NCBI GenBank assembly: GCA_964478545.1
Contig: CAYZIS010000009.1
Coordinates: forward strand, 2,070 to 66,069
DNA: 64,000 nt
Reading direction: 5' to 3'
DNA from: an uncultured Thermodesulfobacteriota bacterium
Lineage (GTDB): Bacteria > Desulfobacterota > Anaeroferrophillalia > Anaeroferrophillales > Anaeroferrophillaceae
Part shown: in pieces, positions 925-26,494 of the stretch
Position numbering within the stretch: position 1 is the first letter of the stretch
How the letters are laid out: the number at the start of each line of letters is the position of its first letter
Translations under genes and position numbers: made by a program
Notes under the pieces: generated by a model
The model's input: only the letters and a program-made list of their open reading frames with translations
The model's database searches: none
Told to the model about the DNA's origin: nothing

Positions 925-1013
925 AGGGGGCAAGGGGAATCGAACCTCCTCCCGGTTTTGCAGACCGGACCAACGGGTTTGAAGCCCGCGGGGCGCCCAG
1001 CACCATTACCCCC
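925..1013 (-). tRNA. selC: tRNA-Sec (selenocysteine tRNA, anticodon UCA)
   Basis: Reverse complement reads GGGGGTAATGGTGCTGGGCGCCCCGCGGGCTTCAAACCCGTTGGTCCGGTCTGCAAAACCGGGAGGAGGTTCGATTCCCCTTGCCCCC. It has an 8-bp acceptor stem (GGGGGTAA/TTGCCCCC), an anticodon loop CUUCAAA with UCA, a long variable arm, a T-loop GGTTCGATTCC, and about 89 nt with no encoded CCA. Confidence 0.8.
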
Positions 1014-6966: not shown

Positions 6967-7026
6967 TAAAACATGAATATTCTTTTTTTTACAATGTAAC
7001 CAGACCACTATTATGGAGCAATTATC

Positions 7027-7851
7027 ATGTGGGAATATACGGATAAAGTCAAAGAACATTTTCTGAATCCCAAAAATGTTGGGGAAGTTGAAAATCCTGA
7101 CGGGGTAGGAGATGTGGGTTCCATTGCCTGTGGTGACGCCCTGTACCTGACCTTCAAGCTGGATGAACAGGGACACATTGCCGACGCCAAATTTAAAACC
7201 TTCGGCTGCGCCAGTGCCATCGCTTCCGCCTCAGCCCTGACCGAACTGATCAAAGGGAAAACCCTGGAAGAAGCGGAAAAAATTACCAACCAGGAAATAG
7301 CCAACTACCTGGGCGGCCTGCCAAAAGAAAAAATGCACTGTTCAGTCATGGGGCAGGAAGCCCTGGAACAGGCTATTGCTTCCTGCCGGGGAACTGAAGT
7401 AAAAAAGGCTGAAGGAGAAATCATTTGCGAGTGTTTTGGGGTAACCGATAAGGAAATCGAGCAGGCTGTGCGGGAAAACGGCCTGAAAACAGTGGAGGAT
7501 GTTACCAACTATACCAAAGCTGGCGGCGGCTGTGAACGCTGCCATGATGATATCCGCAAGCTGATTGCTAAAGTTCGGGGAGAAACAAGTCCCGAAGAAA
7601 AAAAACCATTGACCAACATTCAGAAAATCAAACTGATTGAGGAAACCATAGAACGGGAAATCCGCCCCTCTCTGCAGCAGGATGGAGGGAACATCGAACT
7701 GGTTGATATAATTGGCAATCGCGTTCAGGTAGCCACCCGTGGTGCCTGTGCATCCTGTCCTTCAGCTCCTATTACAATGAAGAGCCTGGTGGAGGCAAAG
7801 CTACGGGAATTTGTTTCTCCGGACTTAGTGGTTGAGGAGGTTTCCTCATGA
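7027..7851 (+). CDS. nifU: NifU Fe-S cluster assembly scaffold (N-terminal IscU-like, central [2Fe-2S] BFD-like, C-terminal NifU domain)
   Basis: CGD...C...C scaffold cysteines, CECFGV...CERCH, and a C-terminal CASCPS motif. Confidence 0.85.
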   Translation: MWEYTDKVKEHFLNPKNVGEVENPDGVGDVGSIACGDALYLTFKLDEQGHIADAKFKTFGCASAIASASALTELIKGKTLEEAEKITNQEIANYLGGLPKEKMHCSVMGQEALEQAIASCRGTEVKKAEGEIICECFGVTDKEIEQAVRENGLKTVEDVTNYTKAGGGCERCHDDIRKLIAKVRGETSPEEKKPLTNIQKIKLIEETIEREIRPSLQQDGGNIELVDIIGNRVQVATRGACASCPSAPITMKSLVEAKLREFVSPDLVVEEVSS

Positions 7852-9029
7852 AGCCAATCTATGTGGACAATAATGCCACTACCCAGGTAGCTCCCAAGGT
7901 ATTGGAAGCCATGCTCCCTTATTTCCGGGAATATTACGGCAATCCTTCCAGTATGCATACGTTTGGCGGCCAAGTGGGACCAAAAATCCGGGAAGCCCGG
8001 GAGCAGGTGGCCGAATTGGTGGGTGCTAACGCCGATGAAATCCTTTTTACCAGCTGTGGTTCTGAAAGCGATAACACCGCCATTCATTCCGCCCTGACCA
8101 GCAATCCTGAAAAACGCCACATAGTTATCAGCCGGGTGGAACATCCGGCAATCCGCTCCTTAGTTGCCAGTCTGAGCAAGCAGGGATACCGGATTTCGGA
8201 AATTCCGGTTGATAGCCAGGGTCATCTTAACCTGGAAAAGTTGCAGGAAAGCCTGACCCAGGATACAGCCATTGTTTCCATCATGTGGGCTAACAACGAA
8301 ACCGGAGTCATTTTTCCCATAGAAAAAATTGCCGAAATGGTTCATCGCCATGGAATCATTTTCCATACAGATGCGGTACAGGCAGTGGGGAAAATCCCCG
8401 TAAATCTGCGCAATACCACCATTGACATGCTCTCCCTCTCTGGGCATAAGCTACATGCAGCAAAAGGAATTGGAGCTTTATTTATTCGTAAAGGAACTAA
8501 ATTTTCCCCTTTTCTGATCGGAGGACACCAGGAACGGGGACGGCGGGCCGGGACCGAAAATGTTCCTGGAATCATCGGGCTGGGAGCCGGCTGCCAGCTG
8601 GCTAAAGAAAATATGGACCAGGAAAATTCCCGGGTCCGGAAGCTCCGTAACCACCTGGAAAAAGAGCTTCTCTACCGCATACCCAACTCGGTAGTCAACG
8701 GCGATCCGCTCCAGCGCCTGCCCAACACCAGCAATATCAGTTTCGAGTTTGTGGAGGGGGAAAGCATCCTGCTGATGCTCAATGAATTTAATATTTGTGC
8801 CTCATCAGGCTCAGCCTGCACTTCCGGTTCCCTGGAACCTTCCCATGTCATCCGGGCCATGGGAGTTCCCTTTACCATGGCCCACGGTTCCATTCGCTTC
8901 AGCCTCAGTATTTATAATACCCGGGAGGAAGTTGATTTCATCATTGAAAAGTTGCCACCGGTGATTGAACGTCTGCGCCTCATGTCGCCATTTGGCAACC
9001 AGGGCAATAAGGCCTGCACCCTGCAATAA
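7848..9029 (+). CDS. nifS: Cysteine desulfurase NifS/IscS (class V aminotransferase)
   Basis: SGHKLHAAKG (the PLP lysine) and the SSGSACTSGS active-site Cys loop. The stop of nifU overlaps the start. Confidence 0.9.
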   Translation: MKPIYVDNNATTQVAPKVLEAMLPYFREYYGNPSSMHTFGGQVGPKIREAREQVAELVGANADEILFTSCGSESDNTAIHSALTSNPEKRHIVISRVEHPAIRSLVASLSKQGYRISEIPVDSQGHLNLEKLQESLTQDTAIVSIMWANNETGVIFPIEKIAEMVHRHGIIFHTDAVQAVGKIPVNLRNTTIDMLSLSGHKLHAAKGIGALFIRKGTKFSPFLIGGHQERGRRAGTENVPGIIGLGAGCQLAKENMDQENSRVRKLRNHLEKELLYRIPNSVVNGDPLQRLPNTSNISFEFVEGESILLMLNEFNICASSGSACTSGSLEPSHVIRAMGVPFTMAHGSIRFSLSIYNTREEVDFIIEKLPPVIERLRLMSPFGNQGNKACTLQ

Positions 9030-9073
9030 CATCACTCTGGATCAGAACTGATATAATTTGGGAAAATAAAGTT

Positions 9074-10030
9074 ATGAATAATATCACCACCCCGGAACAA
9101 TGTACTGAACGACTGGAAATTTCCAGCCAGCACCGCCTGGAAATACCCCAGGTGGTTGACCAACTGGTAGCCACCTGCAAGAGCGGGCAATGCTATGAAC
9201 ACCTGGCGCCGGAACCTATGCCGTCACGCGGGATCACTATCGAAATCATTCATCAATGCCGCATGATTCTGTTCCCGGGTTACTTTACCCGTCCCCGGAT
9301 AGACCCCGTCACTATTGAATATTACCTGGGTCAGGAGGTTTCCAACCTCCATGAAATGCTTACTGAACAGATTATCCTGGCAGTCCGCCACAATTGCCTC
9401 CGTTACCACGAATCGTGCAGTCATTGCGAAGTACGGGGATACGAAGCAGCCATTACTTTTATCAAGGAGCTTCCCCGGTTGCGGATCATGCTGGCCAATG
9501 ACGTGCGCGCCGCCATAGAAGGGGACCCCGCCGCAAAAAGCATGGATGAGGTTATTTTCAGTTACCCGGGACTTTTTGCCATCACCATCTACCGGCTTGC
9601 CCATCTGCTCCGCAAACTGGATGTGCCGCTGCTGCCCCGGATTATGACTGAGTATGCCCACAGCAAAACCGGCATTGATATCAACCCGGGAGCGGAAATC
9701 GGTGAACATTTTTTCATCGATCATGGCACCGGTATTGTTATTGGTGAAACAACCGCTATCGGCAACCGAGTACGCATCTATCAGGGGGTAACCCTTGGAG
9801 CCCTGTCACTGTCAAAAGATGCCGGGATACGCTACCGGGATATAAAACGTCATCCGACTATTGAAGACGAGGTAATTATCTATTCCGGGGCTACCATCCT
9901 GGGAGGGGATACAGTGATTGGTGCCCGCTCCATCATCGGCGGGAATGTCTGGATCACCAAATCCATCCCCCCGGATACGAAAGTCCTGCTGAAAAACCCT
10001 GAGCTGATCCATATTACCAGCGAAGGCTGA
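9074..10030 (+). CDS. cysE: Serine O-acetyltransferase (left-handed beta-helix hexapeptide transferase with an N-terminal SATase domain)
   Basis: DVRAAIEGDPAA, hexapeptide repeats (GTGIVIGETTAIGNRVRIYQGVTLG), and a nifU-nifS-cysE arrangement. Confidence 0.85.
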   Translation: MNNITTPEQCTERLEISSQHRLEIPQVVDQLVATCKSGQCYEHLAPEPMPSRGITIEIIHQCRMILFPGYFTRPRIDPVTIEYYLGQEVSNLHEMLTEQIILAVRHNCLRYHESCSHCEVRGYEAAITFIKELPRLRIMLANDVRAAIEGDPAAKSMDEVIFSYPGLFAITIYRLAHLLRKLDVPLLPRIMTEYAHSKTGIDINPGAEIGEHFFIDHGTGIVIGETTAIGNRVRIYQGVTLGALSLSKDAGIRYRDIKRHPTIEDEVIIYSGATILGGDTVIGARSIIGGNVWITKSIPPDTKVLLKNPELIHITSEG

Positions 10031-13629: not shown

Positions 13630-14223
13630 ATGAAGATAAAAATAAAAAAACTGGCGATGGTGCAGATGGGATATTCATTCCGATCCCGTCTTGAAGCCTC
13701 CAGTAGCGGTGGCGTCGCGGTTATCCAGATGAAAGACCTTCTTGATGACAACACGGTTGGCTGTGGTGACTTGGTAAAAATTGATATGGAGATGGTCAAA
13801 GAACATCACCTTGTGCAGAAGGGAGATTTGGTTTTCAGGTCGCGTGGACACGTAACTACGGCAGCGGTTCTTCTTGAGGAACCGGGGAAGGCGGTTGTTG
13901 CCGCTCCTCTATTAAGGATAAGGATTACCAAGCCGGACAGGGTTTTGCCCGAGTATCTGAACTGGTACATCAGCCAACGGGATGCGCAGATTTTCCTGAC
14001 CAGCAGAGCCAAAGGCACGGTCCAGAAGATGATCAGCAAACAGGCGATTGAGGAGCTTGAAGTTTCATTGCCAAGTTTGGAAAAACAGAAAAATATCGTT
14101 GAGCTGGCATCGCTTATCGCGAGAGAACAAAACCTGCTTCAGCAGATTTCCGAAAAGCGGGAGAAATACATCTCAACAGTACTCATGCAGTTTGCCAAAG
14201 GAACCACGAATGCACACCAATAA
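13630..14223 (+). CDS. hsdS: Type I RM specificity subunit, half-size HsdS (single target-recognition domain plus a conserved coiled region)
   Basis: LPSLEKQKNIVELASLIAREQNLLQQI is the HsdS conserved repeat. Length 197 aa. A -35/-10-like promoter (TTGACA at about 13562) lies upstream. Confidence 0.7.
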   Translation: MKIKIKKLAMVQMGYSFRSRLEASSSGGVAVIQMKDLLDDNTVGCGDLVKIDMEMVKEHHLVQKGDLVFRSRGHVTTAAVLLEEPGKAVVAAPLLRIRITKPDRVLPEYLNWYISQRDAQIFLTSRAKGTVQKMISKQAIEELEVSLPSLEKQKNIVELASLIAREQNLLQQISEKREKYISTVLMQFAKGTTNAHQ

Positions 14224-14592
14224 ACACGAATTATTACTGAAGGATGAAGTATACCAAGTCGTGGGTTGCACTATGGAGGTTTTGAATACGCTCGGTCACG
14301 GGCTACTGGAAAAGCCGTATGAAAATGCATTGGTGGTCGAGTTTGGGTAAGGGGAATCTCTTTCCAGCAGCAGAAACGATTTCCAGTGGTTTATAAATCA
14401 GTTCAGGTCGGGGAATATATTCCAGATTTGATCGCTTTTGATCAAATGGTGATTGACACCAAAGTCATCGAATCTATTGGCAATAATGAAAGAGCCCAAA
14501 TCATCAACTATCTCAAAATAACCGGTCTACGGGTCGGGCTCATCCTCAATTTTAAGCATGCAAAATTAGAGTGGGAACGTATCGTCCTATGA
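14210..14592 (+). pseudogene. GxxExxY protein (PD-(D/E)XK nuclease, PDDEXK_3 family) split by a 1-nt frameshift in a G-run near 14344-14349
   Basis: The N-terminal part reads EVYQVVGCTMEVLNTLGHGLLEKPYENALVVEF. It continues in another frame as VRGISFQQQKRFPVVYKSVQVGEYIPDLIAFD...AQIINYLKITGLRVGLILNF, matching the family end-to-end. Confidence 0.6.
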
Positions 14593-14648
14593 AGATTATT
14601 CGTGTAAATTCGTGTCCATTAGTGGTTTCAAAATAAGGAGAATAAAAC

Positions 14649-16277
14649 ATGAACAGCAAGATTGACCAGAGAGACATCAACAACGCGGCCTGGGCGGCGT
14701 GTGACACCTTCCGAGGGGTTGTTGATCCGGCCCAGTACAAAGACTACATCCTGGTGATGCTGTTTTTGAAATACATCTCCGATGTCTGGCAGGACCATTA
14801 CGATGAATATCAAAAGCAGCATGGCGATGATGATGTTCGTATCCGCCGCAAACTCGAGCGTGAACGCTTTGTTCTCCCAATAGTGAAACTGACGGAAAAA
14901 AATGATCAGACCGGTGAAGAAACGGTGCTAGATGAGTTCCCCGCCAACTACTACAGCCTTTACGAACGCAGATCAGCCGCCAATATCGGTGAGCTGATCA
15001 ACATCGTTCTCGACCATATTGAAGAAAACAACAAGACCAAACTTGAAGGGGTTTTCCGCAATATCGACTTTAACAGCGAGGCCAATCTTGGCAAGACCAA
15101 AGACCGTAACCGCCGCCTGAAACAGCTGCTGGAAGATTTCCATAAACCACAACTCAACATGAAGCCCAGCCTCGTCTCCGAGGATGTGATCGGCAACACT
15201 TATATCTATCTGATCGAACGTTTTGCTTCCGACTCCGGAAAGAAGGCCGGGGAGTTCTTTACCCCGCTGAAGGTTACCGAACTGGTCGCCAAGCTGGCCG
15301 GCCCTAAACCGGGCGACCGTATCTGCGACCCGGCCTGCGGCTCCGGCGGTCTGTTGATTCAGGCAGCCAAACAGGTGGGCGACCTGTCTGCGGGCAACAC
15401 ACAGGCAGGCCGTAACTTTGCCCTCTTCGGCCAAGAATCAAACGGCAGCACCTGGGCGCTCTGCCGCATGAATATGTTCCTCCACAGTTTTGACAGCGCC
15501 CGGATTGAGTGGTGCGATACGCTGAACAGCCCGCTCTTGGTTGAAAATGATCGCCTGATGAAATTCAACTGCGTGGTGGCCAATCCGCCATTTTCGCTGG
15601 ACAAATGGGGCGCTGAGAATGCTGAGAGCGATCAATACAACCGCTTCTGGCGCGGCGTTCCGCCAAAAAGCAAAGGCGACTGGGCCTTTATCAGTCACAT
15701 GGTGGAAATTGCACTGGAAAAAGAGGGTCGTGTGGTCGTGGTGGTTCCCCACGGGGTGCTGTTCCGAGGCGCTGCCGAGGGACGTATCCGGGAAAAGATG
15801 ATTGAAGAAAACCTGCTTGATGCGGTGATCGGCCTGCCGGGCAACCTGTTTCCGACCACCAATATTCCGGTGGCGATTCTGGTCTTTGACCGCTCAAGGG
15901 AAAAAGGCGGTGCCCGCGAAGCGTGCAAGAATGTTCTCTTTATTGATGCCAGTCGGGAGTTTGTCTCCGGTAAAAACCGGAATACCCTTTCTGAAGAACA
16001 TCTGGCCAAGATCATGGAAATCTACACGGCCAGAACCGAAGTGGAAAAATACGCCCATGTGGCTGACGTTGTAGAGATCAAGGAAAACGACTTCAACCTC
16101 AACATCCCCCGCTATGTGGACACCTTTGAAGAGGAAGAGGAAATCGACATCGATGCGGTTCAGCTGGAAATTGAGGCGCTGGAAAAAGAGCTGGCAGAAG
16201 TGCGGGTGAAAATGGCCGAAAAAATGCAGCAAATCCAGAGAAACCACGAATGCACACAAATAGACACGAATGTTTAG
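14649..16277 (+). CDS. hsdM: Type I RM DNA methyltransferase subunit (N6-adenine)
   Basis: VANPPF catalytic motif, a DPACGSGG AdoMet motif, an HsdM N-terminal domain, and 542 aa. The last 11 codons are supplied by repeat element R. Confidence 0.9.
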   Translation: MNSKIDQRDINNAAWAACDTFRGVVDPAQYKDYILVMLFLKYISDVWQDHYDEYQKQHGDDDVRIRRKLERERFVLPIVKLTEKNDQTGEETVLDEFPANYYSLYERRSAANIGELINIVLDHIEENNKTKLEGVFRNIDFNSEANLGKTKDRNRRLKQLLEDFHKPQLNMKPSLVSEDVIGNTYIYLIERFASDSGKKAGEFFTPLKVTELVAKLAGPKPGDRICDPACGSGGLLIQAAKQVGDLSAGNTQAGRNFALFGQESNGSTWALCRMNMFLHSFDSARIEWCDTLNSPLLVENDRLMKFNCVVANPPFSLDKWGAENAESDQYNRFWRGVPPKSKGDWAFISHMVEIALEKEGRVVVVVPHGVLFRGAAEGRIREKMIEENLLDAVIGLPGNLFPTTNIPVAILVFDRSREKGGAREACKNVLFIDASREFVSGKNRNTLSEEHLAKIMEIYTARTEVEKYAHVADVVEIKENDFNLNIPRYVDTFEEEEEIDIDAVQLEIEALEKELAEVRVKMAEKMQQIQRNHECTQIDTNV

Positions 16278-16305
16278 AACCACGGAAAGCTCAAGGAGAT
16301 TCAGC

Positions 16306-16900
16306 GATGAATAAAGACAAAGGCAAACTTTCCCTTCAAGATGAATTAGCCGAATTTCTGCTGTACACCACTCCAGATGGAGGAGTGAAGGTGGAGGTTT
16401 TCCTTTACGGCGAGACCGTCTGGCTACCGCAGAAACGTATTGCAGAGCTCTTTGGGGTTGGTGTGCCTGCCATTTCCAAGCACTTGGATAATATTTACGC
16501 AAGCGGTGAACTGGAAAAACCAGCAACTGTTTCCATTTTGGAAACAGTTCAGCTGGAAGGGAAACGTCAAGTGGCGCGATCTGACACCACTATCGGGAAA
16601 AACTATCTGTCAGAAACGGAAATCAAACAGTTGGAACGTACTGTATCCGCATTCTTTGACTACATTGAAAACATCGTTGAACGCCGCAATAGCTTTACCA
16701 TGAAAAGCTTTACAGCGAGCGTGAATAAGTTTTTGGAGTTCAATGAATATAAAATTCTGGAAGGTCACGGCTCTATTTCCCGCATGCAGGCGGAAGAGAA
16801 GGCTTTCGGCGAATACGAAAGGTTCAACAAGACACAGCTTATAGATTCTGATTTTGACAGGATGGTGAAGGAGTTGTCTACGGAGGGGAACCACGAATGA
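16306..16900 (+). CDS. RhuM-family N-terminal-domain paralogue (short). The track ORF starts at 16250, inside the repeat.
   Basis: YTTPDGGVKVEVFLYGETVWLPQKRIAELFGVGVPAISKHLDNIYASGEL parallels the RhuM N-terminus of the 21515 gene. The conserved leader AAGGAGATTCAGCGATG precedes it. Confidence 0.5.
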
Positions 16901-17039
16901 GCATGAATAGACACGAATAATTAGAACCACGGACGACACGGAAAAACACTGAATTGAAAGCGTTTGATTTTCCGTGCCTTCCGTGCCTTCCGTGCTTTCC
17001 GTGGTTAAAGATGGCCGATAAGCTCAAGGAGATTCAGCG

Positions 17040-17933
17040 ATGATAAATATTGATATTGAAAAACATCACCATCAGACATTTGAGAAAATCAAGCAGACGG
17101 CACAGAATGGTTCTGAGTTCTGGATGGCGCGCCGACTAGCCAAGCTCCTCGACTACGCTGAGTTTCGCAATTTTCTGCCGGTCATCGAAAAGGCGAAAAA
17201 AGCCTGTGAAAATAGTGGTCAGTCCGTGAAAAACCATTTCGTGGAAATGCACGAGATGGTTTCAATTGGTTCCGGAGCTGAGCGAAAAATGAAATCCTAC
17301 GGGCTCTCCCGTTATGCCTGTTACTTGATTGTACAAAATGGCGACCCATCCAAGCCGGTCATCGCCAACGGTCAGACCTATTTCGCCATGCAGACCCGAA
17401 GGCAGGAATTAGCCGATGACCAGGCTTTTCAGCGCCTCAAGGAGGATGAAAAGCGCCTTTTTCTGCGCAACGAAATGCGGGAGCACAACAAACAGCTGGT
17501 GGAAGCTGCTCAACAGGCTGGTGTTGAATCCAATCTCGACTTTGCCATATTCCAGAACCATGGCTACAAAGGACTGTACGGTGGGCTGGACGCCAAGGGG
17601 ATTCATAAACATAAAGGATTGAAAAAGAGCCAACAAATTCTCGACAACATGGGTAGCACCGAACTTGCCGCCAACCTTTTTCGCGCTACGCAAACCGAAG
17701 AAAAACTGCGCCGGGAAAATATTCAGGGCAAGACCAAGGCTAACAAAACCCATTTTGAAGTCGGTAAAAAAGTCCGCCAAACCATCGAAGAACTTGGTGG
17801 AACCATGCCGGAAAATCTCCCGACACCGGACGAAGACCTAAAGAAACTGAAAAGACGGGTGAAGTCGGCAGGGAAAAAGCTGATCAAAGGGTGTGAACTG
17901 CCGGAAAGAGGAACCACGAATGCACACGAATAG
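17040..17933 (+). CDS. dinD: DNA-damage-inducible protein D (DinD) family protein
   Basis: The N-terminus HHQTFEKIKQTAQNGSEFWMARRLAKLLDYAEFRNFLPVIEKAKKACENSG closely matches the DinD family. Such genes are frequently embedded in Type I RM loci. Confidence 0.6.
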   Translation: MINIDIEKHHHQTFEKIKQTAQNGSEFWMARRLAKLLDYAEFRNFLPVIEKAKKACENSGQSVKNHFVEMHEMVSIGSGAERKMKSYGLSRYACYLIVQNGDPSKPVIANGQTYFAMQTRRQELADDQAFQRLKEDEKRLFLRNEMREHNKQLVEAAQQAGVESNLDFAIFQNHGYKGLYGGLDAKGIHKHKGLKKSQQILDNMGSTELAANLFRATQTEEKLRRENIQGKTKANKTHFEVGKKVRQTIEELGGTMPENLPTPDEDLKKLKRRVKSAGKKLIKGCELPERGTTNAHE

Positions 17934-18053
17934 ACACGAATGCTTAGAACCACGGACGACACGGAAAAACACGGAATTGAGAACGTTTAATCTTCCGTGC
18001 CTTCCGTGCTTTCCGTGGTTAAAAATAGCCGAGAAACTCAATGAGATTCAGCG

Positions 18054-19250
18054 ATGAACAAAAAAGATGCTCTCCCAAAAGGATGGAAAAACATAAAGCT
18101 TAAAAAGCTTGTTACTCAGGAAATCAAGAATGGCTATTCACCCAACTGTCCTGAAGAACCAAACGGGAGTTGGATTCTGGGCTTAGGAAATTTAACCGAA
18201 AACGGGTTTGATCCATCCCAGGCAAAACCAGCTCCCAAAGGTGATAGCAGAGTAAAAGACTTTTTACTTGAACCTGGTGATTTTTTAATTAGTCGATCTA
18301 ACACGTTAGACAAGGTTGGAAGGACAATGTTGTTCAGAGGTGAAATTGAAAACTGCTCTTATCCAGATTTACTCATGAGATTTCGTGTAGATGAAACTTA
18401 GGTTACAAATGAATTTTTGGAGGGGTATTTAAGGAGCTCAGTAGTCAGGAAATACATCCAAGGCTGCGCCTCTGGTACAAGCAACAGCATGGTGAAGATC
18501 AATAAAACAATTGTCGAAAAAATACCTATTGTTTTGCCTCCCCATCCAGAGCAAAAAGCCATTGCCGATTTGCTGTCCACCTGGGATGAGGCCATCGAGA
18601 AAACCGAACGGCTGATTCTGGCGCAGGAGAAGCGGTTTAAACAACTGCTGCGGGAGTTGTTAAGAGAAAAAGTCGAGCTGGGGAAAATTGAATTAGGGAA
18701 GGTTTGTAAGATAACAAAAGGAAAACAGTTAAATATAGCTCATATGAATCGTGATGGTTATTATTATGCCTTAAATGGCGGGATTAAACCATCTGGAAGA
18801 ACTGATGATTGGAACACCAAAGCAGGAACCATAACTATCAGTGAAGGTGGAAACTCATGCGGATATGTAAACTTCAATACACAAAGATTCTGGTCTGGTG
18901 GGCATTGTTATTCACTTCTTAATCTAAAAAAATCTGTAGACTCACACTACCTGTTCTTTTATCTAAAAATGAACGAGCCCAAACTTATGAACTTACGGGT
19001 TGGATCTGGACTCCCCAACATACAAAAGAAAGACGTTGATCGGTTTAAAATATCGATCCCACCGCTCGCAGAACAGCATCAAATAGCCGAGACATTATCC
19101 GCCGCCCAACAGGAAATCAACCTGCTGAAACAGCTTGCAGAAAGATACAAAACCCAGAAACGCGGTCTGAGGCAGAAGATGCTCACGGGCGAATGGCGGG
19201 TAAAACCTGAAATCATTACCCAATATGCGGAAGAGGTGCCATGCAAATAA
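18054..19250 (+). pseudogene. hsdS: Type I RM specificity subunit (two TRDs) interrupted by an in-frame TAG at 18399-18401. Both halves are in the same frame.
   Basis: TRD1 (18054-18398), then TAG, then VTNEF-LEGYLRS..., central conserved region, TRD2, and the C-terminal conserved ISIPPLAEQHQIAETLSAAQQEINLLKQLAERYK. Confidence 0.65.
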
Positions 19251-19840
19251 AGCTTACCTATTACAAACCGCAGACGTTGATCCCGGTTATCGGTCTGCTC
19301 TGGGCTCTTTCATCGTGGGCGCTTTCTAAGCTTTGGGGTTACGGCTTCCTACAAGGCACCGGGCCAACCGCCATCGTGATATTTTTTCTAACAGTCTATG
19401 ACAAGTGGCTGTGGAAATACCCTTTGTTTAACTTAATGAACACAATCCCAAACTTGAACGGCATGTATGAAGGAAAAATATCCTTTCACTGGAACGGACA
19501 GGCTGAATCAAAAGACTGTGAACTAGAAATCAAGCAAACCTGTTCAAACATAAAGGTAAAAACGATTTTCACGAAAGAAGGCGAAAACGATACACAGTCC
19601 GTCAGCACCGAAGCATTCATAAAAACTGACGAGGTTAGCGACCAGCATCTCTATTTTTATTATCGCAGTCGTGGTTCCGGGATGGATGGTGACACTCTTG
19701 ATCAGCACGAGGGTATGAATGTTTTGGAGATTCTGAAGAACAACGGATTGATCCAGCTTGATGGATACTATTTTACCAACCGTAATCCTCAAACAAAAGG
19801 CTGCATGAAAGCTACGAAAACAAACAAAGGAGCTAAATAA
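19241..19840 (+). CDS. Small membrane protein with two N-terminal TM helices and a beta-rich C-terminal domain (Cap15-like or 2TM-type CBASS effector candidate)
   Basis: TM1 is LIPVIGLLWALSSWALSKLW and TM2 is GPTAIVIFFLTVYDKWLWKY, followed by about 130 aa of beta-type sequence. The start overlaps the hsdS stop, and the stop overlaps the next start (TAATG). Confidence 0.4.
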   Translation: MQIKLTYYKPQTLIPVIGLLWALSSWALSKLWGYGFLQGTGPTAIVIFFLTVYDKWLWKYPLFNLMNTIPNLNGMYEGKISFHWNGQAESKDCELEIKQTCSNIKVKTIFTKEGENDTQSVSTEAFIKTDEVSDQHLYFYYRSRGSGMDGDTLDQHEGMNVLEILKNNGLIQLDGYYFTNRNPQTKGCMKATKTNKGAK

Positions 19841-20823
19841 TGGATACACATAAACTGTTCTCTGATTTCGATGCTGTAATTCGACTAAACACCTCAAAAA
19901 TAAGTAAATTAAAAAGCAACCGCACAGCACTCCGCAATAAAATTAAAGATCACTTCAAAAAGAACAACTGGACCGCACCAAAATTCTACTCTCAGGGTTC
20001 CTTCCCTTTGAACACAAACCTAAATCCGATCAAAAAAACTACAAGTGATGGAGATGTTAAAGAAGAGTATGACTTGGATGATGGCGTGTATTTCATCTGC
20101 CCAAAATCAGAGCGCAAAGAGCCAGCGACTTATCATGATCGCATCAAGAAGGCTGTGGATGATCATGCCGAAAGCGTCATAGACAAAACAACCTGTGTTA
20201 GGGTTGTATACATAGATGGACATCACATTGATCTGCCGTCTTATTGGCTTGAAAAGGACGGTAACACACCACAACTTACTCACAAGTCTAAAGGTTTTAC
20301 TGATAGCGACCCGAAAGCTTTTAATGAATGGGTTGATGACAATATTTCCAGAGCCAGTAACAATGGTCAACTCCGCAGAATCATCCGCTACTTAAAGGCA
20401 TGGAAGAATTATCGTGAAAATAGCAACAGTACTCTGGAGCTACCGTCAGGTTTCATTTTAACGATTTTGGCATGCAATCATTTTTCAAAGAACAGCCGTG
20501 ATGATCTATCCTTCAAAGGAACAGTTGAATCTATCAAAAATTCACTAAATTTAAGCTTCACCTGTTATCGTCCAACCGTCCCCACCCATGAGGAGCTTTT
20601 GTTTGATTATTCAAAAGATACAGTAATAAAAGAGCTAACCAGCCTGATCGACAACGCACAGAAAGCGATTGATTCGGATTGTGAGAAAAAAGCGTCTGAA
20701 TTCTGGCACAAAGTGTTTGGGGATCGTTTCCCGTCGGGTAAAGAGAAGGATGAGAAGCCCAAGCAATCTACAGCATCCAACACAACCAGAACAAAGGTCA
20801 GTGCTCCATGGGCATCGTTCTAA
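19840..20823 (+). CDS. cGAS/DncV-like nucleotidyltransferase (CD-NTase, SMODS-domain) candidate
   Basis: Pol-beta NTase signature QGSF...SDGDV...YDLDDG, a later VRVVYIDGHHIDLP (third acidic strand), and a C-terminal helical region RRIIRYLKAWKNY typical of CD-NTases. Length 327 aa. Confidence 0.5.
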   Translation: MDTHKLFSDFDAVIRLNTSKISKLKSNRTALRNKIKDHFKKNNWTAPKFYSQGSFPLNTNLNPIKKTTSDGDVKEEYDLDDGVYFICPKSERKEPATYHDRIKKAVDDHAESVIDKTTCVRVVYIDGHHIDLPSYWLEKDGNTPQLTHKSKGFTDSDPKAFNEWVDDNISRASNNGQLRRIIRYLKAWKNYRENSNSTLELPSGFILTILACNHFSKNSRDDLSFKGTVESIKNSLNLSFTCYRPTVPTHEELLFDYSKDTVIKELTSLIDNAQKAIDSDCEKKASEFWHKVFGDRFPSGKEKDEKPKQSTASNTTRTKVSAPWASF

Positions 20824-21440
20824 CAGAACAAGATAAACAAGAGTTGGCTCAAGATTACCCTGCGCTTAACTGTAGTTTGCCGCGAGGGGTAATCTGGGGA
20901 ACCTTGGAGTTGGCTTGTTCATTCGATGAGTCCGCAAATGAAGTTGTTCATGAAGACTCATTTGATAATTACATCCGCGACTGTTATGAGATACGCGTCG
21001 ATTTCAATCAGGCAGACACTTTTGGTTTTCCCAAAGTGTTCGAGGAGTCGGGAATCATTAGAAATTTTGCGGACAGCAATGGTATCAAGCCAGAAGATTT
21101 GCATGTAAACAAAGATGATGCTGACAGCTGCTGTTTGGGGATCTTCCCTGAATATCATTGGACAGGTGCCGCTTCATTCATACGAGATAAGGTAGTGCCG
21201 TTTTTTTACTGGCAGTCTTATCGACGCTTCTATGAGAAAAAACCATGGAAAGGCTATACACATGGCAACCGTGGCATTGTGGAGGCGATGAGTATGCCTC
21301 TCAATGAATCCTCAAAAGGTCACTCACGTAATAAACGATGCCCATGCGGAAGCGGCCAAAAATACAAAAAATGTTGCATGTCTCGAGATGCGATTCTGCG
21401 AAATAAACTATCCAAATCTATTACATCTCGAAAGAGTTGA
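20808..21440 (+). CDS. UBC/E2-like fold protein with a C-terminal SEC-C metal-binding motif (candidate Cap2-like E2-only accessory)
   Basis: Pattern LAQDYPALNCSLPRGVIWGTLEL...YEIRVDF...FPKVF...LHVNKDDADSCCLGIFPEYHW resembles the UBC fold (an HPN-like HVN plus a catalytic Cys). It ends CPCGSGQKYKKCC. The 5' end overlaps the NTase gene by 16 nt. Confidence 0.35.
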   Translation: MGIVLTEQDKQELAQDYPALNCSLPRGVIWGTLELACSFDESANEVVHEDSFDNYIRDCYEIRVDFNQADTFGFPKVFEESGIIRNFADSNGIKPEDLHVNKDDADSCCLGIFPEYHWTGAASFIRDKVVPFFYWQSYRRFYEKKPWKGYTHGNRGIVEAMSMPLNESSKGHSRNKRCPCGSGQKYKKCCMSRDAILRNKLSKSITSRKS

Positions 21441-21442
21441 TA

Positions 21443-21505
21443 ATGACCAATTTCCAAATAAACGAAAAGCATCTTTCTCAAATCCCTGCGATTTTGAGTT
21501 ATTAG
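21443..21505 (+). pseudogene. Duplicated 5' end of hsdR (20 codons, MTNFQINEKHLSQIPAILSY*) left upstream of the inserted rhuM
   Basis: AAATAAACGAAAAGCATCTTTCTCAA is repeated at 21454-21480 and at 22558-22587 (the true hsdR start MHNFQINEKHLSQLPAV). Confidence 0.5.
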
Positions 21506-21514
21506 GGGTGAGTT

Positions 21515-22555
21515 ATGAATAATGATGGCTTGAAAAACAACTCTGAGCTCATGATCTACCAAACCCCTGATGGGAGTATCAAAATAGATGTCCGCCTTGA
21601 GGATGAAAGCGTCTGGCTGACACAGGCGCATATGGCGAAGCTGTTTCAGGTGAAACCGCAGAATATCACCATGCACCTGAAAAACATCTATGCCGAGGGT
21701 GAACTATCCGAAAAGGCAACTTGTCAGGAATTCTTACAAGTTCAAACCGAGGGTTCCCGTCAGGTTGAACGAAAACGGAAGCTTTACAATCTCGACGCAA
21801 TTATTTCCGTGGGTTACCGTATCCAGTCTCAAGTGGCGACCCACTTCCGCATCTGGGCGACGCAACGACTGAAAGAGTACATTGTCAAAGGCTTTGCGTT
21901 AAACGATGACAGATTCAAAAGTGGTCAATCAATGAACTATTTCACGGAACTGCAGGAACGCATCCGCGAAATTCGGCTCTCCGAGCGGTTTTTTTATCAG
22001 AAGATCAAGGACATCTACACCACCAGCATTGACTATGACCCCAGGGATGAAAAGACGATTGAGTTCTTCAAGATCGTTCAAAACAAGTTGCTTTGGGCGA
22101 TCAGCGAACAGACGGCGGCGGAGCTAATCTATCGTCGCGCGGATGCGGCATTGCCCCTAATGGGAATGCAGTCGTTCGATAAGAAAGGCGTGCCGGTCCG
22201 GAAAGGCGATGTTAACATCGCCAAAAACTATCTTCAGGAAGATGAAATAAAACTGCTGGGGTTACTGGTGGAACAGTATCTTGCCTTTGCCGAAACCATG
22301 GCACAACAGCACACAACGATGTATATGAAGGACTGGATTGGGCGGCTTGATGCCATCATTCAACTGAACGGACGGGAACTGCTCACTCACGCCGGAAAGA
22401 TCAGCCATCAACTGGCGTTGGAGAAATCGGCCCGGGAGTATGAAAAATACCAAGAAACACAAAAGCAACTTCAGCACAAAGAGAGTCTGCGGGAACTGGA
22501 GCAGGATCTAAAGCGGCTCAAAAAACCTGGGCAGGCTGGAGACGGCAATGCATAA
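21515..22555 (+). CDS. rhuM: Virulence protein RhuM family (Fic/DOC-related) protein
   Basis: 346 aa. LMIYQTPDGSIKIDVRLEDESVWLTQAHMAKLFQV...ISVGYRIQSQVATHFRIWATQRLKEYIVKGFALNDDRFK is the RhuM family signature. Confidence 0.8.
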   Translation: MNNDGLKNNSELMIYQTPDGSIKIDVRLEDESVWLTQAHMAKLFQVKPQNITMHLKNIYAEGELSEKATCQEFLQVQTEGSRQVERKRKLYNLDAIISVGYRIQSQVATHFRIWATQRLKEYIVKGFALNDDRFKSGQSMNYFTELQERIREIRLSERFFYQKIKDIYTTSIDYDPRDEKTIEFFKIVQNKLLWAISEQTAAELIYRRADAALPLMGMQSFDKKGVPVRKGDVNIAKNYLQEDEIKLLGLLVEQYLAFAETMAQQHTTMYMKDWIGRLDAIIQLNGRELLTHAGKISHQLALEKSAREYEKYQETQKQLQHKESLRELEQDLKRLKKPGQAGDGNA

Positions 22556-25500
22556 CTTTCAGATAAACGAAAAGCATCTTTCTCAACTTCCGGCGGTGCA
22601 ACTGCTGATATCACTGAGCTATGAATATATTTCTCCGGTTGAAGCGCTCCGTGAACGACAGGGAAGAGTTGCCAATGTCTTGCTGGAAAACATTCTCCGC
22701 AATCAGCTCAAAGAAATCAACCGCATTCGCTACAAAGGAAATGAATATCTGTTTAGCGAGGAAAATGTTCAGTCCGCCATCCAGAAGCTGAAAAACATTA
22801 AATATGACGGTTTGCTGAAAACCAATGAAGCAATTTATGATCTGATCACCCTGGGAACGGCCATGGAGCAGACCATCGAGGGTGATTCTAAAAGTTATAA
22901 TTTGAACTATGTTGACTGGCACAATCCCGGCCGCAACAGATTTCACGTGACGGTTGAATACAGTGTTGAGCGGTCCCGGAGCACCGAGACCACCCGGCCG
23001 GATATTGTCCTCTTTGTTAACGGCATTCCTTTTTGCGTGATTGAATGCAAAGCCCCACAGATTGAAGTTGAACAGGCAGTCTCCCAATCCATTAGAAATC
23101 AGAACGACGACTATATTCCGAAGTTATTCATCTATACCCAGTTGGTTCTGGCATTCAATAAGAACAGCGCGATGTTCGCAACCACCGGAACTGCAGCAAA
23201 GTTCTGGTCCATCTGGAAGGAACCACGAATGGACACAAATAAACACGAATACAATAAATTGAAGAAACTGGTAGATGAGTCTGTTCGTGTTGAAATTGAA
23301 CCCAAATCCTTTGAGATTCACTCAGAGCAAAATATTAGTGAAGATTCGTGTTCATTCGTGGTTTCGAAAGAGCGTTTGGTGACGGAGCAAGACAAAGCCC
23401 TTTTTGCTCTCTGCCGCCCGGAACGCCTGCTGGAACTGGCTTGGAAGTTCATTGTTTTTGATGGCGGCATTAAAAAGATTGCCCGCTATCAACAGTATTT
23501 TGTCATCAAGTCCACTCTGAACCGGATCAAGCATTTTGACCGTAACGGTTCCCGCAAGGGCGGTGTTATCTGGCACACGCAGGGGTCAGGGAAATCCCTG
23601 ACCATGGTGATGCTGGCCCGGAATCTGGCCTTGGATCCGGAGATATTGAATCCTCGCATTGTTCTGGTCACCGACCGGGATGATTTGGACAAGCAGCTGG
23701 GTAATACTTTTGCCGCCTGCGGACTGGAAGCCAATCGGGCAACATCGGGAAGAAATCTGCTGGAGTTGGTAGCTGAAAAAAACTCCGGCATTATCACCAC
23801 GCTCATTCATAAATTCGACAAGGCTTACGCGGTAAGAAAATACCAGGATAAATCCCCCGACATTTTCATTCTTGTGGATGAAAGCCACCGTACCCAGTTC
23901 GGCTCGTTTTCCGCCCGTATGCGCCAGATGTTTCCCCATGCCTGCTATCTGGGATTTACAGGTACTCCGTTGCTGAAAAAAGAGAAAAACAACTTCACCA
24001 GGTTCGGAGAACTAGTGGAGCCGCATTACTCCATTTCACAGGCGGTAGAAGACGGCGCGGTCGTTCCACTCTTGTATGAAGGACGGCATGTGGAGATGAC
24101 CCAGAACAAGGCTGCTGTGGACCTCTGGTTCGAGCGTCATACCCAAGGCTTGAGCAAAGAACAGCAGGCGGACCTGAAACGTAAATATGCTCGGGCGGAA
24201 ATGCTGAACAAGGCTTATCAGGTCATTTACATGAGGGCCTTTGATATCAGTGAACACTTTCGGGCTAATTGGCAGGACACCGGGTTCAAGGCACAACTGG
24301 TCGCGCCAAATAAGGCTTCGGCGCTTAAATACCATGCGTATTTGAATGACATCGGCATGGTCAGTTCGGAAGTTGTTATTTCCCCTCCGGATATGCGTGA
24401 AGGCTATGAAAAGACGGACGATGAAACGACTGATGACGTGGTAAGGTTCTGGCAGAAAATGGTGAAACGCTATGGCAGCAAGGAGGAGTATACCAAGCAG
24501 CTCATCAACCAGTTTAAACACGGGAGCGATCCCGAAATCCTTATTGTCGTCGATAAGCTCTTAACCGGCTTTGACGCGCCAAGAAACGCGGTACTTTATT
24601 TATGCAGGGTTCTCAGGGAACATTCGTTGCTTCAGGCTATCGCGCGGGTTAACCGGATCCATGAAGGCAAGGAGTTCGGTTTTATCGTCGATTATGCAAA
24701 TGTTCTTGGTGAGCTGGATAAAGCGCTGACCATGTATAGCGCGTTTGAGGGTTTCGACGAATCGGATCTTGTCGGTACTCTTACTTCCATCAACAGCGAA
24801 ATTGAAAAACTGCCGGGGCGCTATTCGGATTTATGGGATTTCTTTAAGTCGGTAAAGCATTCTTATGATGAAGAGGCATACGAGGTTTTGCTTGCTGATG
24901 ATGAATTAAGGGAAGAGTTTTATAGTCGTCTTTCTGAATTTGGTAAAAACCTCGGTATCGCTCTTTCTTCTGAAAAGTTTTTGTCTGAGACAGATGAAAA
25001 AACTCTGTCCAGATACAAGGCTGATCTCCGGAAATTCCAATCGCTTAAGGCATCTGTCAAGTTGCGCTATGCTGAAGCTATTGATTACCGGGATTATGAG
25101 CCGAAAATCAAGAAGCTGCTGGATACCCATATTCAAGCCAATGAGGTTATCCAGCTCAACGAGCCGGTTAACATCTTCGATGACAAAATGTTCAATCAGG
25201 TAAAAGAGGAGCAAGGAGTTTATCAAACCAGGAAAACCACGGCCTCCAAAGCCGATATGATTGCTCACGCAACGAAAAAAGTGATTACGGAAAAAATGTT
25301 CGAAGACCCTGCTTTTTACGAAAAATTTTCAAAGCTGATCCAGCGGGCTATTGAAGATTTCAGAGCAAAAAGAATATCGGATCTGGATTATCTCAATAAA
25401 GTCGTTGAGGTCAGGAATAAAGTCGTCGGCAAGGTTCATGATGATGTTCCTGATAAACTTTCCGGCAATGAAGATGCCATGGCCTATTATGGGATACTGA

Positions 25501-25769
25501 AACCGTTCCTCGAAAATAACAAATTGAATGAAGAAGACCTTGAAGCTGCCACCGCAGATACGGCCATCGCTCTAAACGGTATTTTGGAAAAACACAAAAA
25601 AGTTCATTTCTGGGATGATGAGGATGCCCAGAAGCAAACGGTTAATGAGATTGACGATTACCTCTATGATGAACTTAAAACAGAAAGAGGTATCGAACTG
25701 TCGCTGGATCAGATGGATGACATCATTGAAAAGGTTCTGCAGGTGGCGAAACACCGGAGTTACAAATGA
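22548..25769 (+). CDS. hsdR: Type I RM restriction subunit HsdR (SF2 helicase/nuclease). It contains a 147-bp in-frame palindromic insertion at 23219-23365.
   Basis: QGSGKSLTMV (Walker A), VDESHR (DEAH box), and an N-terminal PD-(D/E)XK region (DIVLFVNGIPFCVIECK). Length 1073 aa. Confidence 0.9.
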   Translation: MHNFQINEKHLSQLPAVQLLISLSYEYISPVEALRERQGRVANVLLENILRNQLKEINRIRYKGNEYLFSEENVQSAIQKLKNIKYDGLLKTNEAIYDLITLGTAMEQTIEGDSKSYNLNYVDWHNPGRNRFHVTVEYSVERSRSTETTRPDIVLFVNGIPFCVIECKAPQIEVEQAVSQSIRNQNDDYIPKLFIYTQLVLAFNKNSAMFATTGTAAKFWSIWKEPRMDTNKHEYNKLKKLVDESVRVEIEPKSFEIHSEQNISEDSCSFVVSKERLVTEQDKALFALCRPERLLELAWKFIVFDGGIKKIARYQQYFVIKSTLNRIKHFDRNGSRKGGVIWHTQGSGKSLTMVMLARNLALDPEILNPRIVLVTDRDDLDKQLGNTFAACGLEANRATSGRNLLELVAEKNSGIITTLIHKFDKAYAVRKYQDKSPDIFILVDESHRTQFGSFSARMRQMFPHACYLGFTGTPLLKKEKNNFTRFGELVEPHYSISQAVEDGAVVPLLYEGRHVEMTQNKAAVDLWFERHTQGLSKEQQADLKRKYARAEMLNKAYQVIYMRAFDISEHFRANWQDTGFKAQLVAPNKASALKYHAYLNDIGMVSSEVVISPPDMREGYEKTDDETTDDVVRFWQKMVKRYGSKEEYTKQLINQFKHGSDPEILIVVDKLLTGFDAPRNAVLYLCRVLREHSLLQAIARVNRIHEGKEFGFIVDYANVLGELDKALTMYSAFEGFDESDLVGTLTSINSEIEKLPGRYSDLWDFFKSVKHSYDEEAYEVLLADDELREEFYSRLSEFGKNLGIALSSEKFLSETDEKTLSRYKADLRKFQSLKASVKLRYAEAIDYRDYEPKIKKLLDTHIQANEVIQLNEPVNIFDDKMFNQVKEEQGVYQTRKTTASKADMIAHATKKVITEKMFEDPAFYEKFSKLIQRAIEDFRAKRISDLDYLNKVVEVRNKVVGKVHDDVPDKLSGNEDAMAYYGILKPFLENNKLNEEDLEAATADTAIALNGILEKHKKVHFWDDEDAQKQTVNEIDDYLYDELKTERGIELSLDQMDDIIEKVLQVAKHRSYK

Positions 25770-26494
25770 TGGAGGCTGCAATTCATAACGATAAACGCTC
25801 GCTTGTTTATGGGCGCAAGACCATTGATTACAGTCTTTTCTATTGCGATAGAAAAACGATGGAAATTGCGGTTCATCCTGACAGTACCGTCATTGTCAAA
25901 GCACCGATCGACTCCGATATTTCGTTGATCGAGAAAAAGTTAAATAAAAGAGGACGATGGATTTTCAGACAGTTGAACTACTTCAGGCAGTTTAATCCCA
26001 AAACACCTGATCGATGCTATGTGAATGGTGAAACCCACCTGTATCTTGGAAAGCAATATCGCTTAAAACTGACGGAGGGCTCAGAAAATTCAGTAAAGCT
26101 GGTCCGGGGCTTTTTTTATATTACCTGCCGTGATGTACCAAGCCCGGCAACAGCCAAAAAGCTTTTGCACAAGTGGTATTTGGAAAAGGCGGCCAGGCAA
26201 TTCAAAGAAAGCATGGATCGCTGCTGGCAAAAATTCTCCAACTTCGATTTTAGCAAACCCAATTTATCGATCAAACGAATGCAAAAAAGATGGGGCAGCC
26301 TTTCAGAAAAAGGAACGGTGACACTCAATACCGATCTGATCAGAGCACCCAAGGAATGTATTGAGTACGTTGTAACCCACGAACTGTGCCATTTGAAATA
26401 TCGTAATCACAGCCCCGAATTTTATAAGCTGCTCGATTCTGTTATCCCCGGCTGGGAAAAGATAAAACACAGACTTGAACTCAGTATGATGTGA
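25766..26494 (+). CDS. M48/YgjP-like zinc metallopeptidase (DUF45), commonly co-encoded with hsdR
   Basis: HELCHLKYRNH is an HExxH motif. Length 242 aa. The start overlaps the hsdR stop. Confidence 0.6.
   Translation: MMEAAIHNDKRSLVYGRKTIDYSLFYCDRKTMEIAVHPDSTVIVKAPIDSDISLIEKKLNKRGRWIFRQLNYFRQFNPKTPDRCYVNGETHLYLGKQYRLKLTEGSENSVKLVRGFFYITCRDVPSPATAKKLLHKWYLEKAARQFKESMDRCWQKFSNFDFSKPNLSIKRMQKRWGSLSEKGTVTLNTDLIRAPKECIEYVVTHELCHLKYRNHSPEFYKLLDSVIPGWEKIKHRLELSMM

Follow-up and report, generated by a model that had tools for sequence, protein, structure and literature searches.

The three genes and their place in the operon

We analysed a 64,000-nucleotide (nt) stretch of DNA from an uncultured Thermodesulfobacteriota bacterium (GenBank assembly GCA_964478545.1, contig CAYZIS010000009.1), called the window below, in which three overlapping forward-strand genes lie within a Type I restriction-modification (RM) operon, between its hsdS and hsdR genes. 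An earlier annotation made from the letters alone (the sequence-only reading) had taken them for a cyclic-oligonucleotide-based anti-phage signalling system (CBASS). The analysis reported here gives a probability of roughly 85% that they make up a type II-short ("E2-only") CBASS operon for abortive infection, intact and carried as a co-oriented passenger of the RM operon. The features are as follows, in window positions.

19241-19840 (+): open reading frame (ORF) A, Cap15-type CBASS effector, 199 amino acids (aa), two transmembrane (TM) helices and a beta-barrel
19840-20823 (+): ORF B, CdnB-like nucleotidyltransferase of the cGAS/DncV-like kind (CD-NTase), 327 aa, from NCBIfam, PADLOC, Pfam and PDB matches
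19996-20001 (+): CD-NTase active site, G53-S54
20071-20079 (+): CD-NTase active site, D78/D80
20230-20232 (+): CD-NTase active site, D131
20797-20823 (+): CD-NTase tail motif VSAPW, three variable residues (ASF) and the stop, from homologue comparison
20808-21440 (+): ORF C, E2 regulator (UBC fold) encoded on its own, SEC-C at the C-terminus, 210 aa
21132-21134 (+): candidate catalytic Cys109 of the E2 protein
21327-21380 (+): zinc knuckle (SEC-C) at residues 174-191 of the E2 protein, RNKRCPCGSGQKYKKCCM (Pfam SEC-C, 7.1e-08)

The effector and cyclase genes share one base, the A of TAATG, the cyclase and E2 genes overlap by 16 nt, and the ATG of the effector gene lies 10 nt within the 3' end of hsdS (ORF 18417-19250). 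These positions and junctions are exactly those given by the sequence-only reading, and the motifs it had picked out by eye (QGSF, YDLDDG, HIDLP, RYLKAWK, DSCCLGIF and CPCGSGQKYKKCC) were all verified. Judged by their sequences, the three ORFs are not chance frames, because each has strong family matches, and their homologues, which number from dozens to hundreds, show no change at the catalytic residues. A programmed -1 frameshift yielding a cyclase-E2 fusion was considered and dropped, the 16-nt overlap GCTCCATGGGCATCGTTCTAA having no slippery heptamer.

The cyclase is a CdnB-like CD-NTase

The 327-aa protein scores 212.9 bits against NCBIfam NF041078, "CBASS cGAMP synthase" (cut-off 150), and aligns end to end with the PADLOC cyclase model PDLC00774 (1.9e-105). 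Pfam places it in DncV-like_NTFase and SMODS, and its homologues already carry the name "CBASS cGAMP synthase" at NCBI. The top PDB match is 7ljo_A (1e-35, residues 6-304), which is CdnB of Bacteroides fragilis, a clade B04 enzyme. Residues Q52, G53, S54, D78, D80, D81 and D131 are unchanged in 15 family members, so the GS/DxD/D site is intact. These four resources uphold the assignment to the cGAS/DncV-like (SMODS) enzymes that had been made by eye.

CdnB of B. fragilis (7LJO) is the closest solved CD-NTase, and although the two proteins are diverged homologues they have the GS, DxDD and hIDLP motifs in common. Asp238 in "lid 3" of CdnB, an acidic position that has been tied to GTP preference and synthesis of 3'3'-cyclic GMP-AMP (3'3'-cGAMP), corresponds to the acidic E251/E252 of the window enzyme. 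CdnB itself makes 3'3'-cGAMP. The product of the window enzyme is most likely also 3'3'-cGAMP, because of its assignment to the NCBIfam cGAMP-synthase equivalog and its closeness to CdnB.

Beyond FGDRFP (residues 293-298), where the helical C-lobe ends, about 30 low-complexity residues make up a tail that terminates in VSAPWASF. Among 104 cyclase homologues, 85 have P[WY] within the last 14 residues, 64 have exactly three residues after it, and only 5 have a glycine among the last three residues. The P-W codons also hold the E2 start codon (ccATGg), and we considered whether conservation of the motif is solely a by-product of this embedded ATG. This was rejected, since natural CD-NTase-E2 fusions, in which there is no overlap and no start-codon constraint, keep [RK]P[WY][AS] in their linkers. 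The VSAPW tail is the candidate site at which the E2 protein would dock or process the cyclase.

The effector is a Cap15-type protein

The 199-aa protein matches the PADLOC/CBASS effector model (8.4e-31) and the Pfam family Cap15_CD_rec. An AlphaFold2 model has TM helices at about residues 10-31 and 37-55, with which the hydropathy maxima coincide (no dedicated TM predictor was used), and a C-terminal beta-barrel of eight strands (residues 74-193), the form of the minimal 8-strand barrel, which is predicted to be a cyclic-dinucleotide receptor. Profile searches and fold comparison thus bear out the earlier call of a Cap15 or "2TM" effector. Cap15 of Yersinia aleksiciae (PDB 7N34), a CBASS effector with two TM helices and a beta-barrel, is the type of Cap15_CD_rec protein that the window effector resembles, at 24% identity. 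In Cap15 the barrel is where the nucleotide binds, and the protein acts by disrupting the inner membrane. PMC10442399 describes Cap15 operons that are type I CBASS and have CdnE cyclases, unlike the window operon, in which Cap15 is partnered with a CdnB-like cyclase and an E2 protein.

A 77-aa DUF2188 gene lies directly 5' of the Cap15 gene in three related loci, both embedded and free-standing (L087 8191-8424, L091 8206-8439 and L113 8167-8400). It is absent from the window and may be an optional fourth component.

The third protein combines an E2 fold with a SEC-C knuckle

PADLOC's E2 model matches the 210-aa protein at 8.2e-21. Pfam finds SEC-C alone in this protein, and the E2 matches from Foldseek are weak, the best having E = 0.11. 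His99 stands at the place of the histidine of the HPN motif (here LHVN), and both His99 and Cys109 are invariant across the E2 relatives and lie within the UBC catalytic loop. The combination of UBC/E2 fold and SEC-C that the sequence-only reading had described is supported by the profile searches and fold comparison taken together. In the knuckle, which has the CxC...C[CH] motif with a basic GxxKYKxC core, residues C178, C180, C189 and C190 are invariant, and the PDB matches are the zinc-binding peptides of SecA and YchJ.

When the E2 core alone was run as a full HMMER search, 606 representative clusters came back, of which 248 reached E<=1e-10. The CxC...C[CH] ending is present in 116 of the 148 top representative clusters, which makes E2 plus SEC-C a broad clade, and the knuckle falls inside the span covered by the existing PADLOC E2 models; the view that a SEC-C motif on the accessory protein is unusual therefore does not hold. 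Five long matches to the E2 core were examined and all five are single-chain CD-NTase-E2-SEC-C fusions (P0149, P0154, P0190, P0192 and P0217; 529-607 aa). As sequence evidence these fusions back a functional link between cyclase and E2 only. Within a limited selection of literature we found no specific account of CBASS with SEC-C or of CBASS within Type I RM operons.

The trio is a type II-short CBASS of a catalogued class

Profile searches of the neighbouring genes found no E1 or JAB domain near the trio. Because the E2 gene adjoins a CD-NTase gene and an effector gene with no E1 or JAB nearby, we assign the trio to type II-short CBASS, or E2-CBASS. It has what this class is defined by: a cyclase with an intact GS...[DE]x[DE]...D site, an adjacent receptor-domain effector conserved with that cyclase, and a stand-alone UBC-fold E2 with a candidate catalytic cysteine beside it. 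The class named by the sequence-only reading (NTase, E2 only and membrane effector) was thus correct on both profiles and folds.

Two further parts of that reading have to be revised. The effector-first gene order, which it held to be unusual, is the canonical CBASS order, e.g. capV-dncV-cap2-cap3. The module, which it considered the most likely novel system in the window, is not a novel system, because its gene order is canonical, SEC-C is common in the family, and embedding in RM operons has been described. PADLOC and NCBI models already recognise this E2-CBASS type, and published counts of the class run from 406 to 616 systems.

The nearest studied system is SmCdnG-SmE2 of Serratia marcescens (PDB 8HSB), likewise an E2-only CBASS without E1 or JAB, with the cyclase gene followed by the E2 gene and the catalytic cysteine in a loop after the last beta-strand. 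SmE2 processes SmCdnG and forms both a thioester and an isopeptide (Yan et al. bioRxiv 10.1101/2022.05.25.493364; Xiao et al. 2026, PMC12948482), and 73.65% of E2-CBASS cyclases belong to clade G. The two cyclases differ in that SmCdnG is a clade G enzyme of about 400 aa having a ubiquitin-like C-terminal helix with a three-strand sheet and an essential penultimate glycine, whereas the window cyclase is CdnB-like, has 327 aa and carries a short low-complexity tail ending P-W-x-x-x. The E2 proteins differ as well, SmE2 having 159 aa without SEC-C and the window E2 210 aa with the zinc knuckle. The type II CBASS of Vibrio cholerae (capV-dncV-cap2-cap3) has the same order of effector, cyclase and ubiquitin-like regulator as the window and uses the C-terminal tail of its cyclase as a regulatory handle, as proposed here. 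Its Cap2 is an E1-E2 fusion accompanied by the JAB protease Cap3 and its effector is a phospholipase, in contrast to the lone E2 and the Cap15 of the window.

The trio recurs as a unit between hsdS and hsdR

Neighbourhoods of related trios were gathered by exact-protein look-ups and a metagenome scan, giving 15 loci with informative flanks. An alignment scan with the E2 core recovered 16 mostly short loci from metagenomes; the same scan of viral contigs recovered no locus. The order Cap15-cyclase-E2 is held at E2 identities of 42-68%, and it recurs in more than 12 loci at effector identities of 44-74%, most loci also keeping the 16-nt overlap between the cyclase and E2 genes. The informative loci fall into two groups.

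Embedded between hsdS and hsdR, same orientation (10 of 15): the window, L088, L090 (Persicirhabdus sediminis), L091, L097, L098, L101, L108, L110 and L114 (the archaeon Methanococcoides sp. NM1)
Not embedded (5 of 15): L087, L109, L111, L112 and L113, with no RM genes around the trio; some lie in other defence islands

The sequence-only reading had called the module an internal passenger of a Type I RM operon and had proposed checking whether it is a conserved unit that also occurs elsewhere. The three genes are co-conserved, the embedding is real and recurrent, and the free-standing loci supply the occurrence outside RM operons. In five embedded loci (the window, L088, L090, L108 and L110) the trio overlaps the hsdS stop. 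Eight of the ten belong to one RM lineage that co-diverges with its CBASS genes, their hsdR being 57-83% and their cyclase 58-76% identical to those of the window. L090 and L101 have Type I RM systems unrelated to that of the window (hsdR 24-25% identical), which argues for independent capture. On a neighbour-joining tree the cyclases of the five free-standing loci nest among the embedded ones. With ten of 15 loci embedded and five not, we take the trio to be autonomous, with a marked preference for the hsdS-hsdR slot. The same slot also hosts unrelated passengers, namely RhuM, DinD, Fic, HicAB, AAA_21/DUF4276 and AAA_14.

The archaeal locus L114 (GCA_900774285.1, 5064-16125) consists of half-hsdS, hsdM, RhuM, hsdS, Cap15, cyclase, E2-SEC-C, hsdR and YgjP genes, and its hsdM, hsdR and cyclase are 87%, 78% and 74% identical to those of the window. 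Such high identities argue for a recent inter-domain transfer of the whole composite operon. A Methanolobus metagenome-assembled genome also carries the cyclase. The L101 relative is embedded in a Type I RM operon of HindI type, and there one ORF of 996 codons (7026-10016) carries a subtilase (Peptidase_S8) that continues in frame into the CD-NTase; Cap15 is cut to a 33-residue remnant, and an AAA ATPase gene lies 5' of the fused ORF, which may represent an effector swap or fusion.

Embedding of defence genes in operons of Type I RM, bacteriophage exclusion (BREX) and defence island system associated with RM (DISARM), nearly always co-oriented, has been described as "guilt-by-embedding" (Payne et al. 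2024). Two passengers in the window, RhuM (PDC-S05) and DinD (PDC-S13), are candidates from that survey. The classic functionally coupled case is the PrrC anticodon nuclease, which in the EcoprrI Type I RM operon occupies the hsdS-hsdR slot; TgvAB in VPI-2 of V. cholerae is a recent RM-embedded example. The window trio is like both in being an abortive-infection or second-layer module set in the same orientation between hsd genes. PrrC differs in being found almost exclusively embedded and in being physically masked by the RM enzyme, whereas the window trio matches PrrC in its co-oriented hsdS-hsdR position (10 loci) and departs from it in standing free of RM genes in a third of the loci.

Proposed mechanism and alternative explanations

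If the trio works as its relatives do, phage infection would lead the CdnB-like CD-NTase to make a cyclic dinucleotide, which would bind the beta-barrel of the Cap15-type effector. The effector would then oligomerise through its two TM helices and breach the inner membrane, and the infected cell would die before the phage matures. Control of the cyclase would fall to the E2 protein, whose Cys109 would engage the flexible C-terminal tail of the cyclase in the way that SmE2 engages SmCdnG, with the P-[W/Y]-x-x-x terminus presumably recognised instead of a terminal glycine; the SEC-C knuckle is possibly a tether or partner-binding module. Nesting in the RM operon would provide linked inheritance and shared expression, and would add a second layer of defence in which restriction acts first and suicide follows if restriction fails.

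Three points weigh against this account. The cyclase has neither the conserved glycine at or near its C-terminus (G406 in SmCdnG) nor, since its core ends at residue 298, the ubiquitin-like helix and three-strand sheet of clade G cyclases (typical there, not obligatory), so that E2 chemistry may differ from that of the only E2-CBASS studied. The overlaps and the shared orientation are the sole pointers to the probable co-transcription of the trio with the RM genes; promoter and terminator scans gave results no different from those with shuffled sequence and are silent on any internal promoter. The restriction layer, in turn, may be impaired in this genome, because hsdS is a 398-codon frame with one in-frame stop at codon 116 (18399-18401). 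The interruption may leave HsdS truncated or without function, or the protein may serve as a half-size HsdS. The same split hsdS gene calls recur in independent metagenome assemblies (L001-L003).

The missing glycine has its strongest bearing on how the E2 protein acts. It is possible, though we would not favour it, that this protein does not conjugate at all and is a clamp or protease-type regulator that binds or cleaves the P-[W/Y] tail without forming a thioester or isopeptide. The scarcity of glycine at the cyclase terminus fits this, as do the bulky aromatic residue at position -4 of the tail, the loss of linkage in SmCdnG when its glycine is changed to valine or leucine, and the documented cysteine-protease activity of SmE2. 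Against it stands the invariance of Cys109 and His99 within the UBC catalytic loop, and the motif retained in the linkers of the fusions is equally compatible with processing followed by conjugation and with processing alone. A different question is whether the RM operon does more than house the trio. As with PrrC, the cyclase and E2 could be kept inactive by HsdRMS, or monitor it, and fire when a phage anti-restriction protein of the Ocr, Stp or ArdA type disables restriction, with SEC-C or the E2 as the contact. The slot is the same as that of prrC in the embedded loci, the hsdS stop is overlapped in five of them, three Type I RM lineages and an archaeon all show this arrangement, the CBASS genes and hsdM, hsdR and YgjP co-diverge over a long span, and PrrC is a documented precedent. 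Against this, the trio can stand alone, the many unrelated passengers suggest that the slot is a generic insertion hotspot, and characterised CBASS systems function without RM. Such a guard role is conceivable but unsupported, since one third of the loci are free-standing, and we hold it unlikely; a shade less likely still is its stronger form, in which the whole CdnB/Cap15/E2-SEC-C lineage is a dedicated Type I RM guard that senses anti-restriction through E2-SEC-C and uses a non-glycine tail variant of ubiquitin-like regulation. For the nesting we prefer linked inheritance and expression together with layered defence.

The signs of decay in the cluster raise the thought that the trio is an inactive remnant of a degenerating operon: besides the stop in hsdS there are a RhuM fragment, a split GxxExxY gene, repeat elements and a doubled hsdR 5' end. 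The three CBASS ORFs are nevertheless full-length with all invariant family residues intact, and the proteins recur as identical copies in several metagenome assemblies made independently, so we regard this as very improbable. That the locus is not CBASS at all, the NTase being a non-signalling pol-beta enzyme (of the type of MNT antitoxins or aminoglycoside NTases) and ORF C encoding something other than an E2, was an outcome that the sequence-only reading had set as its own refutation. Apart from the lone Pfam SEC-C match and the weak Foldseek E2 matches in ORF C, nothing in its favour was found. NCBIfam, PADLOC, Pfam and PDB all put the NTase among the CD-NTases, which are signalling enzymes, and ORF C shows the UBC fold and the PADLOC E2 match given above; profile, PDB and fold comparisons leave this explanation with a negligible probability.

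For annotation, the three genes can be confidently labelled as E2-type CBASS with a Cap15 effector, and the gene order and SEC-C, both thought unusual, turn out to be ordinary. Two leads follow, neither of which overturns current understanding. One is a CBASS lineage that sits preferentially in the hsdS-hsdR slot, in a composite operon that moves between bacteria and archaea; the RM-CBASS composite is a clean natural case in which genetic hitch-hiking only can be set against functional back-up of the kind known from PrrC, and a guard role, if true, would give one CBASS family a defined trigger. The other is a large E2+SEC-C clade that pairs with cyclases lacking the C-terminal glycine needed by the current E2-CBASS model.

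The host RM operon

The remaining genes of the cluster are listed below.

13630-14223 (+): half-size hsdS (Pfam Methylase_S)
14048-14592 (+): GxxExxY (PD-(D/E)XK_3) gene, split into two ORFs, between half-hsdS and hsdM, with inverted repeat-element copies at its flanks
14649-16277 (+): hsdM (NCBIfam TIGR00497, 1.7e-86), which with half-hsdS opens the same-strand cluster
16250-16900 (+): RhuM fragment, matching the first ~85-125 and last ~90 residues of full RhuM
17040-17933 (+): DinD/Bro-N (DinD is PADLOC PDC-S13)
18054-19250 (+): hsdS (Pfam Methylase_S, 9.5e-35)
21443-21505 (+): remnant of a former hsdR 5' end, MTNFQINEKHLSQIPAILSY and stop, 20 codons, starting 2 nt after the E2 stop
21515-22555 (+): RhuM-family gene, second embedded passenger (Pfam Virulence_RhuM, 2.1e-102; PADLOC PDC-S05, 1.2e-138)
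22548-25769 (+): hsdR, 1073 aa (NCBIfam TIGR00348, 1.4e-141), with HSDR_N, ResIII, SWI2_SNF2 and T1R_D3-like domains
25766-26494 (+): YgjP-like metallopeptidase (Pfam YgjP-like, 2.5e-55)

The half-size hsdS is probably a genuine RM component and not debris, because it is conserved at the same position, 5' of hsdM, in L088, L091 and L114 (49-63% identity in L088 and L091). The YgjP-like gene directly follows hsdR in L088, L091, L098, L108, L110 and L114 and is the last gene of this RM lineage. Intact PDDEXK_3 or "23S rRNA IVP" genes occur at positions similar to that of the split GxxExxY gene in L087, L088 and L090, and appear to be small selfish genes that Type I RM operons carry along.

The "ancestral hsdR start" noticed by the sequence-only reading downstream of the E2 gene is real. 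A direct repeat (D5), 82% identical over 49 nt, pairs 21442-21490 with the true hsdR start at 22547-22595 and brackets RhuM, and the peptide MTNFQINEKHLSQIPAILSY is similar to the N-termini of HsdR in related loci. In L091, L097, L098 and L114 hsdR begins at that very position after the E2 gene, and since these loci have hsdR directly after E2, RhuM is the later arrival and brought a fresh hsdR 5' end with it. The repeat shows that RhuM entered the former E2-hsdR junction by recombination within hsdR. The RhuM ORF at 16250-16900 is, by its sequence, an internally deleted second copy of the 21515-22555 gene.

An element of about 30 nt, AACCACGAATGCACACGAATAGACACGAAT, is found at RM gene junctions and nowhere else in the window (0 chance matches expected). 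Its copies are:

14202-14231
14595-14627 (inverted)
16242-16271
16889-16918
17912-17941
23221-23250
23333-23363 (inverted)

The copies at 23221-23250 and 23333-23363 form an inverted pair within the hsdR coding region, at a variable loop, with the reading frame kept. Larger junction modules that include a ribosome-binding site and an ATG are duplicated as well (16884-17054 and 17907-18068, 87-89% identical). The element was considered as a cassette boundary and rejected in that role, as it does not flank the CBASS trio.

Elsewhere in the window there is a selenocysteine tRNA gene at 926-1013 (-) (Rfam tRNA-Sec, 52 bits). Together with a neighbouring multihaem cytochrome, rubrerythrin and rubredoxin, it points to an anaerobic host.

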